Source: an uncultured Gemmatimonadales bacterium (GTDB lineage Bacteria; Gemmatimonadota; Gemmatimonadetes; Gemmatimonadales; GWC2-71-9). From it: a stretch of 64,000 nucleotides of DNA. The notes under the pieces were generated by a model. The model saw nothing but the letters and a program-made list of their open reading frames with translations. It was not told the DNA's origin and did no database searches. Position numbers and translations under genes: made by a program. Location of the stretch: positions 153,291-217,290 of the forward strand of contig CAWCVB010000005.1 in the NCBI GenBank assembly GCA_963798915.1, in the 5' to 3' direction. Positions 1,296 to 53,553 of this stretch are shown piece by piece; the first letter of the stretch is position 1; the number at the start of each line of letters is the position of its first letter.

Positions 1296-1432
1296 AACCA
1301 AAAACCCGCCATTGCGGGCGGGCTTTCGGTATGGGGAGTGGTAGATCGCCCCCTGAGTATACGGAGACGGACCGATGTGCCCGCTCCACCCTTCTTCGAC
1401 CTACCACTTTTTGTTGGGCGTCCTGCCCTCGG
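1296..1432 (-). ncRNA. Candidate sigma-54-dependent structured small RNA (~135 nt)
   Basis: Lies between a consensus -24/-12 promoter and a terminator. Contains a 12-bp stem (1337-1348/1397-1408), an inner hairpin and a 5' GGGC-AGGAC-GCCC hairpin. No convincing ORF. Confidence 0.55.
1300..1326 (-). terminator. Intrinsic terminator (U-tract on the minus strand, possibly bidirectional)
   Basis: CCCGCC(1305-1310)-ATTGCG-GGCGGG(1317-1322) stem flanked by AAAAA at 1300-1304 and TTT at 1324-1326. Confidence 0.7.
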
Positions 1433-1442
1433 CTTTTCATAA

Positions 1443-1458
1443 AGCAACCACCGTGCCA
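1443..1458 (-). promoter_or_regulatory. Sigma-54 (RpoN) -24/-12 promoter
   Basis: Minus strand reads TGGCACGGTGGTTGCT, an exact match to TGGCACG-N4-TTGCW. Confidence 0.75.
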
Positions 1459-1532
1459 CTTCGCATAATTCGCTAAGTCGCCATGTACCAAAGAGTTGCG
1501 AAGAAGCTGAGGGCGCACTTCGGCTGTTATGG

Positions 1533-1549
1533 TGTCACTTTTCTCTACA
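1533..1549. promoter_or_regulatory. Candidate enhancer-binding-protein UAS (TGT-N11-ACA dyad)
   Basis: TGTCACTTTTCTCTACA, about 100-117 bp upstream of the predicted TSS, in AT-rich DNA. Confidence 0.45.
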
Positions 1550-1604
1550 GTATTCGACGCTAACTGTTAATTCTTTATGGCACAGCCACTTAGGTTGCTG
1601 TCAG

Positions 1605-2450
1605 CTATTTTGACGGCGTCGCGATGTTGGGCGTCTTCAGCCAGGTGCCTGGTGCGGGGCTTTCGCCGTGCCTCCAGCGGTTCAGCAGCACAAAGCCCAG
1701 GATCACCAGTGCGACGCTTACCACCTGCGCGATCGTGAGCGGTCCAAAGAACCGGTCGTCCTTGGCGCGAAGGATCTCGATGACGAAGCGCTCTGCCCCG
1801 GCCCAGATCAGGTAGGCGCCGAACAGCCAGCCGGCCGGCCGGTCCAGCTTCCGCCAGCGCCAGAGAAAGACGAACGCCACCAGCATGATCGCCGTTTCGT
1901 ACAGCTGCGTCGGGTGGACTGCCAGAACGGTGGTTGGCTCGAGCCCCGGCGGGCTCGCGATGCCGAGATGCGCGAGGTTGGAGGCCGTCGAGGGGGGATA
2001 CCCCTGCGGGAACTTCACGGCCCAGGGGACGGAGGTCGGCCGGCCGTAGTCGTCGTTGATCAGGAAGCAGCCCACCCGGCCCAGGGCATACGCTGCCGCC
2101 AGGGCCGGCGCTGCGAGCTGCATGGTCCAGCGCAGCGGGACATGGCGACGCCAGCCGTTGAGGATGACGGCCAAGGCGCCGCCAATGAAACCGCCGTACC
2201 AGACCAGGCCACCGCGATCGAACAGCGTGCCCGGATCGCCGGTGAGCGCCACGTACCAGAGCTTGGCGCCGATGACGCCACCAACCAAAGCGGCCACCAC
2301 GATGTCGGCGGAGTACTCTTCCCGGAATCGCCGCCGGCGGAGTTCCTGGGTCATGAGCCACCCGCCCATGAGGAACGCCACCATCATCATGAGGCCGTAA
2401 CCGGTGATGGTCAGCGGGCCGAGGTGAAAGAGCAGCGGATACATGGTCAT
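1605..2450 (-). CDS. lgt: Prolipoprotein diacylglyceryl transferase
   Basis: GGLVWYGG, LGRVGCF, HPTQLYE and RFVIEILR motifs. Confidence 0.95.
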   Translation of the reverse strand: MTMYPLLFHLGPLTITGYGLMMMVAFLMGGWLMTQELRRRRFREEYSADIVVAALVGGVIGAKLWYVALTGDPGTLFDRGGLVWYGGFIGGALAVILNGWRRHVPLRWTMQLAAPALAAAYALGRVGCFLINDDYGRPTSVPWAVKFPQGYPPSTASNLAHLGIASPPGLEPTTVLAVHPTQLYETAIMLVAFVFLWRWRKLDRPAGWLFGAYLIWAGAERFVIEILRAKDDRFFGPLTIAQVVSVALVILGFVLLNRWRHGESPAPGTWLKTPNIATPSK

Positions 2451-14139: not shown

Positions 14140-14630
14140 CGCGCCATCCGGGCTGCCGAAGCACTCTGCAGCAGGTGGGTGAGCGCGATCGCAACACCAT
14201 CGGCCGCGTCGGCCGGCTCCGGAGCAGCGGTGAGGCGCAGCAGCTGCTGCACCATGTAGCCCACCTGGGGCTTGAGCGCGGCACCCCGGCCCACCACCGT
14301 CTTCTTGATCATCGCCGGCGCGTATTCCCCGATGGTCAACCCGGCCTCCTCGGCCGCAAGGAGAATCACGCCACGGGCGTGGCTCAGCACCATGGTAGTG
14401 TGCACATTCCGCCCGAAAAAGGCTTTCTCGACCGCGAGTGCGTCCGGCCGGTGCCGGACGATCAGGTCGTTGATGGCTTCGTGGATGATCCGCAGCCGGG
14501 CGGGAAGGGAATCCCGGCTGGACGTGCGCACCACGCCGCATTCGATGAGCCGGCCGGCCCGTCCGGCTGCCGACTCCACCACTCCATATCCGAGCACCGC
14601 TGTGCCCGGATCCACGCCGAGCACTCTCAC
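14136..14630 (-). CDS. ruvC: Crossover junction endodeoxyribonuclease RuvC
   Basis: VLGVDPG, HARGV and DAADGVAIA motifs. Confidence 0.96.
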   Translation of the reverse strand: MRVLGVDPGTAVLGYGVVESAAGRAGRLIECGVVRTSSRDSLPARLRIIHEAINDLIVRHRPDALAVEKAFFGRNVHTTMVLSHARGVILLAAEEAGLTIGEYAPAMIKKTVVGRGAALKPQVGYMVQQLLRLTAAPEPADAADGVAIALTHLLQSASAARMAR

Positions 14631-51065: not shown

Positions 51066-53366
51066 CTAGTAAACGCCCACAATCGCGGCGGTCAGTGCGT
51101 CCACATTTGCACCTGGCGGGAGCCCGTCTGTGCTTCCCGCGTAGTATGGGCTGGAGGTGGTGAGGTCATAGTCACCATTCGCATAGTCGGTCATGCCGAC
51201 GGTGAGTGAGCTGGTGGGGTAATAATTGCTCGACGGGTACTTGGTCGAAGGCGCTGCGACAACAATGTTGCCGCGGAAGACGCCGTCCGGCGCATAGTAG
51301 GCCAAGGCCGCGGAGCCCTTCACCCTTGCTGCTGCCGAAGACACCGTAGGTGCCCCGGGCTGAAGAGATTGTCCCGGATCACCAGCGCCGAGGTCGGTTT
51401 GCCGTCGAACAGCACGATCTTGTCCTGGCTGAAGCCGGTATTGTGGGCGATCGTGATGTTTCGCACCGTTCCCAGGAGCTGGAACAGAATGCGGGTACCG
51501 GTCTGGGTGGACTGGGCCACATCCTCGAGCACGTTTTCCGCGATGAGGAAGTCGTTGGCCGGGATGGCAGTCCCGCCGCTCAGCGCCTGGTAATCCGATG
51601 ATGTTGAACCCGCCCGGGGAGTTCTTGATCAGGTTGGTGCCGGATGGTCAGATCCTGGGCGACGCACCAATCGCAGCGCCCGCCCTGGTTGGCCGACTTC
51701 AGAACGATCGCGAAGCCGGTCTGGGCGTCTGACCAGTTGTTCTCGAAGATGTTGCTTTCGAGGAGCACCCGCTGGGCATTCTTGACCTCGAAGAGGTTCT
51801 TGACGGACCAGACACCCTTCCACGAGAGCGGCTTGAAGACGTGGTTGTGACGGATGGTGATGTCGCTCGGGACCACCCCGTACACGTTGGGGTCCGCACC
51901 ACCGAACATGATGTTCTCGCCCGCACCCTCGAGATGGTTGTTCTCGATCTTGAGCGGGCCCGGGCTGGCCCAGGTGATGATGGCCTGGGTGTCCATGCCC
52001 TTGCCATGACAGTCGGACAGCCAGCTGTCCACCACCGCGCTGGTGCGGGAGTTCAGCACGACGCAGCGTTGCAGGGTCTGGCTGGACGTCGCCGTGGACA
52101 TAGACCCGGTCCAGGATGATCTCCTGCGGGATCTGGTCCACGCTGGTCGCGGATTCGTTGTAGAGCTGGATCAGCGAGTAGGTCATGCTGGCCGTGGAGC
52201 CGACCTCGACGCCCATGAGCCGGTAGTAACTCGCATCGCCGCTCGCCGCCGTCTTGATGTGCCGGCATCGAATTGGGAGTCATGATCTTCGCGAAATTGG
52301 CCGCCGCCTGAGGTGTGACCCGGGTGCCCTCGGCCGGCAGGGTTGTGGCCGTGCGAATAGTGATCCAGCCGGTGCCGGACTTGGCAGGCAGGGTGAAATT
52401 CCCGCTGAACGTCGCGCCCGCCGCCAGCTCGATCACGTCGCCGCGCTGCGCCGCATTGAGCGCTGACTGCAGCTCGCCGCCGGCCGGCACCACGATGGTG
52501 TTGCCGGTGGGCGGGACGTAACGGCTGTCAACCGCCACGCGAGGAAGCTCCACGGAGCCATCGCTGGCAATCGGCTGAAGCGGCGCGGCGGTGACCGTCG
52601 TGTCGGTCGGGGTCGGGCTCGTGGTTGTCGGCGTCGTGACGGACGTGGTATCTGGAGCCGGAGCTGGGGCCGGGGCTGGTGCCGGCGCCGTCGCTGGCGC
52701 CGCGATGCTGACGCTGGCCGAATCGGTCAGCGGCCCGCCATGCTGCTTGGCCACAATCGTGAAGGAACCCGCGGTATCGCCAGCGGTGTAGTACAGGCCG
52801 CTCGCCGTGCCGCCGGGCGTCGACTGGAGGTCGGCGACCACTGGGACACTGTCGCCAGCCGAGGTGCGACCGTAGACGAAGAATTGCTGGCCCTGGCCCA
52901 CGGCAAGAGAGACGACCGTCGGCAGGATGTAGATCTTGGCAAGACTCACGCTGTTCGACCTTGGAACGGAGACCCTCGTCGTGTCGCGGAACTTCTTCCC
53001 GCGATCAAAGCTGACCAGGCGGTAGTCGCCCGGCTCCTTGGCCGAAAAATAGGTCATGTGCTTGGAATTGACGACCGTGTCGCGAAGCTCGCCGCCATCG
53101 AGACTGACCCAGTCAGCCTCGACGGGGGTCTTCTCGCCGTCCGACTTGACCGCCATGGCCCGGACCGGCGTCGCCTGGTCGGGCGCCACGGTCGGATTGT
53201 CCGATGAAGCCAGAATTCCCACCACCTGGCTGGCGGCACGGGGCGAGTCGAAGTCCGAGCCCAAGGGGCCGCCATCCATGCAGCCGGCTACCAGCACGAT
53301 CAGGCCGGCGACGGACATATCTCGCAGCAGGGCGAGGCGACGGGACAGCTTGTGCTTGAACGGCAT
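51066..53366 (-). CDS. Secreted lipoprotein with Ig-like repeats and right-handed beta-helix domain, paralog B (multiple frameshifts)
   Basis: LVAGC lipobox, AP/T-rich linker; GGELQSALNAAQRGDVIEL, SPGPLKIENNHLEG and KNLFEVKNA segments. Confidence 0.78.
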
Positions 53367-53537
53367 GAGAAGCTCCGCGAAGAGTCTGGGAACGCAACAG
53401 GCCGCCGGCGGGCGCACCTGTTCGCTGGGGGTGCGTGTCGCTGGCGGCCCGGCTGGCATGGCGCTGATGCGCTGAAGCCCCGAAACTCTGCGTCGCGGCG
53501 TTTCCGCCGGTTTGCTCTGAGCAGCGCCCAAGCCAGA

Positions 53538-53553
53538 AGCAAGCCTCTTGCCA
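53538..53553 (-). promoter_or_regulatory. Sigma-54 promoter upstream of the beta-helix lipoprotein genes
   Basis: Minus strand TGGCAAGAGGCTTGCT, one mismatch to TGGCACG-N4-TTGCW. Confidence 0.65.

Follow-up and report, generated by a model that had tools for sequence, protein, structure and literature searches.

What is encoded in the 417-bp gap between the convergent cytochrome c-FTR1 and lgt genes of an uncultured Gemmatimonadales bacterium? The gap lies in a stretch of 64,000 nucleotides (C5:153291-217290, called the window below; positions are those of the window unless a contig is named) of a 3.3-Mb assembly (G000) with 66% G+C and 84.8% completeness. An earlier note on this DNA had read the gap as an undescribed, free-standing gene for a small RNA (sRNA) dependent on sigma-54. 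That reading is supported by the conservation of its promoter and stems, by the lack of an Rfam match and by the lack of a coding signal; as far as comparison of sequences can tell, the locus belongs to a new family of small RNA genes that is restricted to one clade and controlled by sigma-54. We consider it highly probable that we are dealing with a real, separately promoted non-coding RNA gene; its mode of action is discussed further below with less assurance.

The sigma-54 box that had been announced on the minus strand is present as an exact -24/-12 promoter, TGGCACGGTGGTTGCT (1443..1458), of the form TGGCAC-N5-TTGCW. At sigma-54 promoters, transcription starts about 12 nt after the GC element and requires both rpoN and an activator. 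The predicted start is near 1432, and the ATG at 1440-1438 sits at about -8 to -6, upstream of that start, as the note had said. The genome itself encodes sigma-54 (Sigma54_DBD, 214 bits, C6:79713-80189) together with 8 full-length NtrC-family sigma-54 activators (PF00158), and a promoter scan of 1100-1750 returned no sigma-70-like promoter. One must nevertheless count what such a box is worth by itself: the strict pattern has a single match in the whole assembly, the window's own, vs 3 for the reversed control pattern; the looser TGGCAY-N5-TTGC has 9 matches genome-wide vs 14 for its reversed control; boxes with at most one mismatch number 4 in the window vs 2.08 expected. Genome-wide counts being no higher than those of the reversed controls, a single box is not beyond chance, and conservation is what counts. 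This speaks for an alternative, according to which there is no gene of its own here, only a structured 3' tail of lgt with its terminator, or a terminator region shared with FTR1, accompanied by a chance box.

Conservation was therefore counted on loci chosen by the RNA core alone, namely 80 fetched loci and 12 from BLAST, 92 in total, which come down to 83 distinct ones as 9 genomes are common to both sets. In 81 of the 92 loci (72 of the 83 distinct), the pattern TGG[CT]A[CT]-N5-[TA]TGC precedes the core by 25-65 nt; outside these places, the same regular expression has just one match in the 504,390 bases that the loci comprise. The remaining 11 comprise 10 close variants (CTGC, GTGC, CGGCAC, and one weaker TGGTCC...GTGC) and one locus cut off by the end of its contig. 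In an alignment of 12 loci, the GG and GC elements are kept in all 12 while the spacer and the flanks drift. Of 41 related genomes searched with BLAST, all 9 of the same genus matched strongly, and most of these matches start on the -24 box or no more than a few bases from it; beyond the genus, two genera match over the core only, one of them at 99% identity over 74 nt. The assignment of the box as a sigma-54-dependent promoter, although drawn from comparison, is thereby supported.

The box does not stand alone. Two 17-bp dyads had been reported upstream of it, and both were found where they were said to be: the proximal one, TGTAGAGAAAAGTGACA (1533..1549, minus strand), at about -90 from the -24 T, and the distal one, CGTCAAAATAGCTGACA (1599..1615, minus strand), of the form YGTC-N9-GACR, at about -156 and overlapping the lgt stop codon. 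In upstream regions right-aligned on the box, two dyads of the YGTC-N9-GACR form appear; over 92 distinct regions, they are most often placed at -95..-91 and -160..-156, counted from the -24 T. Slot counts were made on the 90 distinct sigma-54 loci with enough upstream sequence: a GT-N11-AC dyad occupies the proximal slot (-102..-67) in 60 and the distal slot (-175..-140) in 49 of them, and both slots together in 39, whereas control slots hold a dyad in 0-11 of the 90. Their role as predicted activator sites, near the expected spacing of about 80-150 bp upstream, is supported. Against the idea of an lgt tail with a chance box, box and dyads keep fixed distances while the sequence between them drifts.

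Between the dyads and the box, just upstream of the -24 element, lies a conserved AT-rich GACTTAG element (1473..1479, minus strand) that resembles part of an IHF site. Across the family, some 17 nt separate the end of the ACTTA element from the box, and the T at -18 is held in 84% of 80 loci. A CAR-N4-TTR motif falls within -40..-5 in 37 of 90 loci vs 0-1 of 90 in the controls; the strict WATCAR-N4-TTR form is found in 4 of 90 only, and the window matches the ACTTAG half alone, so that the likeness to an IHF site should be regarded as partial.

What would be transcribed from this promoter is a strongly structured RNA. Read from 1432 to 1298, the predicted transcript is about 135 nt long (family median, 145 nt) and folds at -65.4 kcal/mol with a z of -4.65, none of 200 shuffles being as stable. 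Its parts, all on the minus strand, follow each other in the fold in the order that had been claimed: a GGGC-AGGAC-GCCC hairpin, an A-rich linker, a 12-bp stem with an internal loop and an inner hairpin, an unpaired stretch and a terminator. The 5' hairpin (1416..1428) is variable in sequence among relatives, with 77 of 91 distinct loci forming one at -5 kcal/mol or below; the GGA in its loop, to which the note had drawn attention, is indeed present in the window, but it is not general to the family, the AGGA loop being confined to the genus of this genome. The single-stranded linker AACAAAA (1409..1415) brings A residues before the core that are conserved in at least 90% of 68 sequences. Then comes the conserved core hairpin (1337..1408, 72 nt), which scores 103 bits with R1, a covariance model of the core that we built from 68 distinct sequences. 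It is composed of P1, a 12-bp stem pairing 1397-1408 with 1337-1348; an invariant 5x6 internal loop with AAGAA (1392-1396) opposite AGGGGG (1349-1354); P2, in which GGGU is paired with ACUC, plus a GUAU bulge; and P3, the inner hairpin, whose loop is at 1373-1378. The C-rich single-stranded stretch of the earlier description stood in part: the window does have an unpaired pyrimidine-rich linker, CCCCAUA (1330..1336, 7 nt), while across the family this post-core linker (median 8 nt, 73% C+U, a CU-rich tetramer in 51 of 80 loci) is conserved in composition only and not in sequence. Last, an intrinsic terminator with a GC-rich hairpin and a U tract occupies 1298..1329; a consensus scan confirmed it at 1319-1304 with the tail TTTTGGTTTG, and 80 of the 87 distinct loci with enough downstream sequence have a hairpin of -9 kcal/mol or below with at least 4 T in the 8 nt that follow, the other 7 having a hairpin with a poor U tract.

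Covariation was measured on 105 aligned matches, 91 of them distinct. In this alignment, which was fitted to the structure of the model itself, a limit that we come back to below, 99.6% of cells pair and both partners have changed in 13 of 24 pairs, while slid controls pair at 32-52%; none of 500 shuffles reaches any of the covariation measures. The inner hairpin covaries freely, as does the outer part of P1, and the invariant letters are those of the internal loop and its closing pairs (A.GG.CGAAGAAG.G-U on the 5' side, A-CUCAGGGGGC on the 3' side). By eye, a K-turn and a loop-E were also considered for this internal loop and dropped, since its letters misfit either consensus. Relatives keep the -24/-12 box and the stems, whose conservation the earlier note had made a test of its reading, and with them both dyads and the terminator.

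Could the same stretch code for a small protein? A frame opening at the GTG of the core's 5' strand stays open for 40-49 codons in 67 of 91 loci, which is the evidence in favour of such a gene. However, there is no codon periodicity and no conserved coding frame across the region, as the note had anticipated: core lengths range over 69-73 nt and leader lengths over 17-35 nt, the latter without a period of three; 17 of the 91 loci have indels of 1-3 nt within the core; and the three codon phases have variabilities of 0.052, 0.049 and 0.036, the third position being the least variable. Moreover, the frame continues through the terminator and the observed changes are compensatory for pairing. A small protein gene is thus barely conceivable. 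As for a known RNA, no Rfam family was expected and none came out of the scan of 1100-1750 against 4227 families, nothing being below E = 1.3; the rows returned were at chance level (RNAI at 17.2 bits vs a cut-off of 47, blv_FSE and CC0196). In the literature searched on Gemmatimonadota small RNAs and sigma-54, no title or abstract opening describes this RNA, nor did we come across, in these titles and openings, a published small RNA from Gemmatimonadota, a phylum common in soils and sediments.

The family is narrowly distributed. A 22-nt degenerate pattern of the core matches 92 stretches in a collection of species-representative genomes and, among the matches listed (80 with titles), all are metagenome-assembled genomes of Gemmatimonadales/Gemmatimonadota but one, labelled Actinomycetes. 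Searching with R1 across the phylum, we found the RNA in 27 of 151 sampled genomes, all from one family: besides the genome under study, it is present in 26 of the 71 sampled genomes of the carrier family and in 0 of 79 from eleven other families. Seven of 82 genera carry it, with R1 scores of 64-109 bits and 1-3 copies per genome. One of the 27 genomes, G086, is marked as unpublished, and none of the conclusions depends on it by itself. In five loci (L101, L106, L109, L159 and L162), one promoter is followed by two cores with a short variable hairpin between them and by one terminator, for a predicted transcript of about 250 nt.

One genus, g33, departs from the rule in an instructive manner. 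Its five genomes (loci L153, L155, L156, L157 and L158) all have the RNA at the same site, and none of their six cores is preceded by a sigma-54 box; they carry instead TTGACA-N17-TAnnnT, a sigma-70-type promoter that ends 37-48 nt before the core and whose regular expression has only 8 matches in 639,734 bases. The P1 stem of this genus is a fully compensated variant, with GUCCCAGGA paired with UUCUGGGAC. Since the box is replaced in g33, the carriers split into 22 of 27 with a sigma-54 box and 5 of 27 with a sigma-70-type promoter, which offers a natural experiment in sigma-54/sigma-70 promoter swapping. A promoter of another type at the same place is also difficult to reconcile with a mere tail of lgt.

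That alternative deserves to be followed through the surroundings of the gene. The cytochrome c-FTR1 permease fusion ends at 1187 on the plus strand, and lgt (Pfam LGT, 190 bits) runs at 1605-2450 on the minus strand, with its stop codon at 1605-1607; the sRNA gene is thus directly downstream of lgt on the same strand, as a 3' tail would be, and the next gene is convergent. The position of the gene is fixed: among 113 loci, 107 have lgt within 1.5 kb of the core, 103 have tsaD and 98 have the FTR1 gene. The wider 20-kb neighbourhood is likewise syntenic; being merely syntenic, the neighbouring genes say little about function. Five relatives of the same family that lack the RNA keep tsaD-lgt (5/5) and mostly the FTR1 neighbour (4/5), and neither a sigma-54 box nor the RNA was found in their lgt-side gaps, which are short or contain a plain terminator: these relatives manage without the structured stretch, which argues against its being needed as an lgt tail. 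In one of them, the lgt-FTR1 gap (L183:2330-2520) has a run of GAGAGGT/AAGAGGT heptamer repeats and an inverted copy around the terminator hairpin.

Expression data speak less clearly. None of the sequencing runs holds the locus well (best DNA share, 0.26), and four metatranscriptome runs gave 8 short contigs from relatives over 1332-1432, contigs that carry neither strand nor ends. No fewer than 5 of the 8 extend beyond the predicted start on its upstream side, and one includes the promoter box; contigs extending upstream in this way leave DNA carry-over or read-through from lgt possible, so they have to be counted on the side of the lgt tail and against a separately promoted gene. Taken with the fixed spacing of box and dyads, the swapped promoter of g33 and the gaps of the RNA-lacking relatives, we nevertheless judge the lgt-tail explanation to be very improbable.

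With a free-standing sigma-54-dependent sRNA gene as the preferred reading, one is led to compare it with known circuits of this kind, first of all GlmY and GlmZ of the Enterobacteriaceae (GlrK/GlrR). Passages of PMC3045617 describe the glmY/glmZ promoters as having a sigma-54 box, TGTCN10GACA sites and IHF sites of the form WATCARXXXXTTR, and report that, in one species subgroup, sigma-54 dependence is lost and a sigma-70 promoter is found instead. As far as these passages go, both systems consist of free-standing sigma-54 sRNA genes, with several TGTC...GACA and IHF-type sites there and two YGTC-N9-GACR dyads and an IHF-like element here, and the sigma-70 swap of a subgroup there has its counterpart in the sigma-70-type promoter of one genus here. 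Such an alike promoter layout would be expected of an analogue of GlmY/GlmZ, that is, of a sigma-54/GlrR-type circuit whose RNA would control glmS by pairing or as a RapZ-like decoy. The resemblance stops there: GlmY and GlmZ have three dyads with a 10-nt spacer, and not two with a 9-nt spacer as here; there is no match in sequence or structure to GlmY (RF00128) or GlmZ (RF00083), neither being matched in Rfam at E <= 10; the RapZ-like N domain (PF03668) was not found in the genome under study, which is 84.8% complete; and the phylum is a different one. Nor is there any special pairing with glmS, whose gene lies 17 nt after the upstream gene: in a duplex scan of 2453 crude gene starts, restricted to this genome, the glmS-leader duplexes are unremarkable, with ranks of 176 to 1402. 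An actual GlmY/GlmZ analogue therefore has very little chance of being correct, and the likeness is, to judge by this comparison, one of circuit layout and not of family membership.

Two further systems bear on how the RNA may work. Qrr1-5 (Vibrio, LuxO) are, like the present family, sigma-54 sRNAs with several copies per genome (1-3 here) and with promoter independence or swap, under an NtrC-type regulator in their case. The Qrr RNAs are Hfq-dependent and act through a conserved unpaired seed. Here, by contrast, Hfq (PF17209) was found neither in the genome under study nor in 5 carriers that are 96-98% complete (0/6), the conserved letters are in a loop embedded in a helix, and there is no Rfam match. 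That promoter independence exists in Vibrio is illustrated by Qrr2 of V. parahaemolyticus, which can be expressed independently of sigma-54 according to an excerpt of 10.1101/2021.07.01.450815. The comparison with CrcZ/CrcY (Pseudomonas, CbrB) concerns a titrating mode of action; the present RNA also has a purine-rich invariant module, doubled in 5 loci. CrcZ and CrcY are controlled by sigma-54 and an NtrC-family activator and titrate a protein via repeated purine-rich motifs, which are unpaired A-rich stretches, the partner of CrcZ being Hfq/Crc. The differences are that Hfq was not found in the six genomes mentioned above and that the motif is here a structured internal loop.

The earlier note had itself offered modes of action that did not fare as well as its gene prediction. 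Sponging of CsrA is disfavoured: CsrA is patchy (not found in the genome under study nor in 2 of the 5 near-complete carriers), the GGA loop is not conserved and there is only one AGGA loop, whereas sponges of the CsrB/RsmZ type have many GGA motifs in loops. 6S RNA forms a rod of some 180 nt opened by a large bubble at its centre. A mimic of it found no support either: there is no Rfam match, RF00013 included, and the fold here is a 72-nt hairpin whose 5x6 internal loop is not such a bubble.

Base-pairing is a more serious contender. The gene and its promoter would be the same, but the RNA would act as an Hfq-free riboregulator whose linker and 3' strand of P1 (...CUACCAC-CUCYC...) block ribosome-binding sites. 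The linker is unpaired in the fold and has the C+U richness and the CU-rich tetramers described above, and the duplex scan yielded one outlier at -36.9 kcal/mol (mean -19.7, sd 4.2), which spans the Shine-Dalgarno sequence GGGGGGUG and the start codon AUG of a gene on the minus strand of C3 (start 26690) for a secreted, lipoprotein-like product of 562 aa. This best duplex is, however, interrupted by a 21-nt loop and known from one genome. A scan for 11-mer complements gave scattered hits in about the number that we estimated for chance, with no control alongside, and 12-mer matches of the linker fall inside probable coding regions. Pairing seeds are usually the best-conserved part of an sRNA; here the linker is unconserved, 29 of 80 loci being without a CU tetramer, and the invariant letters lie inside a stable helix. 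We thus regard the base-pairing riboregulator as rather unlikely, without dismissing it. An invariant purine loop embedded in a helix, a module that can be doubled and an unpaired linker that is unconserved point, taken together, to a docking module rather than to a base-pairing seed, and the negative search for Hfq in six carrier genomes is in keeping with this. Provided that the gene is real, we would give work through a binding module rather than a pairing seed a chance a little short of even, vs a doubtful prospect for anti-Shine-Dalgarno pairing by the linker.

An invariant loop flanked by covarying helices is also the pattern of an aptamer, and one may imagine a trans-acting ligand sensor, or some other structured RNA of riboswitch-like or catalytic nature, whose internal loop binds a small molecule. 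There is, though, no downstream gene to control, as the RNA has its own terminator and is then followed by a convergent gene; no riboswitch or ribozyme of Rfam matches; and the gene context, merely syntenic, offers no clue to a ligand. This explanation appears improbable to us.

We favour, with slightly more confidence than doubt, a sigma-54-switched sRNA acting in trans via an internal-loop docking module. In this account, sigma-54 RNA polymerase would wait at the -24/-12 box, unable to start alone; an NtrC-family activator would bind both 17-bp dyads (some 90 and 156 bp ahead of the -24 T), probably assisted by an AT-rich, IHF-like bend, and would turn transcription on upon a signal, giving a transcript from about 1432 to the terminator near 1298. 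The 5' hairpin would be protective. The RNA would act in trans without Hfq, its invariant internal loop most likely being the place where a particular protein or, with less likelihood, a small ligand docks; once the activator has fired, the RNA would titrate or redirect this partner. Weak pairing of the CU-rich linker with ribosome-binding sites may come on top. Only tentatively would we go as far as to propose that the AAGAA/AGGGGG loop docks a new RNA-binding protein or ligand, that the family is the first of a new class of Hfq-independent titrating riboregulators in Gemmatimonadota, and that its input has been rewired between sigma-54 and sigma-70 from genus to genus.

None of the eight activators scores above a curated equivalog cut-off in NCBIfam. 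The stretch C5:147286-148662, about 6 kb before the window start, encodes an orphan response regulator of the NtrC family (REC-AAA+-HTH_8), and no kinase gene adjoins it. No other protein of the syntenic block is as well conserved (58-85% identity vs about 43-75% for its neighbours), and in 13 of 15 stretches of 12-20 kb the regulator lies close to the RNA.

Several observations weigh against the favoured account, beginning with the two already met, namely the contigs that run upstream of the start and the covariation counted on a model-fitted alignment. Orthologues of the syntenic activator, at 53-63% identity, are present in 3-4 of the 5 RNA-lacking genomes too, and for this reason the activator cannot be tied to the RNA. 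When a second copy of the core motif was sought in messenger RNAs, it was found nowhere else in the genome under study; with no further genomic copies, there is no sign of messengers sharing the binding site. Finally, the invariant loop could itself be a seed for loop-mediated pairing.

Whatever the partner, the locus is a complete, comparatively validated unit made of dyads, bend element, sigma-54 box, structured RNA and terminator; it gives a handle on the signal sensed by one of eight NtrC-type activators, and its compact invariant module could be used as bait for a partner. Should the ordinary reading alone hold, it would be one more well-supported sigma-54-controlled small RNA family.

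The dyads may have a second use in the same genome. A position matrix of the dyads found a sole other site in the genome where two dyads are followed by a sigma-54 box: at C4:14441-14573, in the genome's own locus record L187, two YGTM-N9-GACR dyads (14441-14457 and 14521-14537) precede the box TGGCACCTCCGTTGC (14559-14573). This promoter stands before genes for three DUF4402 secreted proteins, a 276-aa protein and an 858-aa protein (C4:14441-19620; L187:2441-7615), and its box and dyads are conserved within the genus. The sRNA may share its activator with a DUF4402 surface-fibre operon, as far as the motifs go.

A different sigma-54-like box, TGGCAAGAGGCTTGCT, with one mismatch, is found elsewhere in the window (53553-53538, minus strand); its predicted start is about 2 nt before a c-di-GMP-I riboswitch (53526-53440, minus strand, 56.6 bits), after which a lipoprotein-like gene starts near 53365. 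The stretch 53440-53553 may represent a putative sigma-54-driven riboswitch unit.

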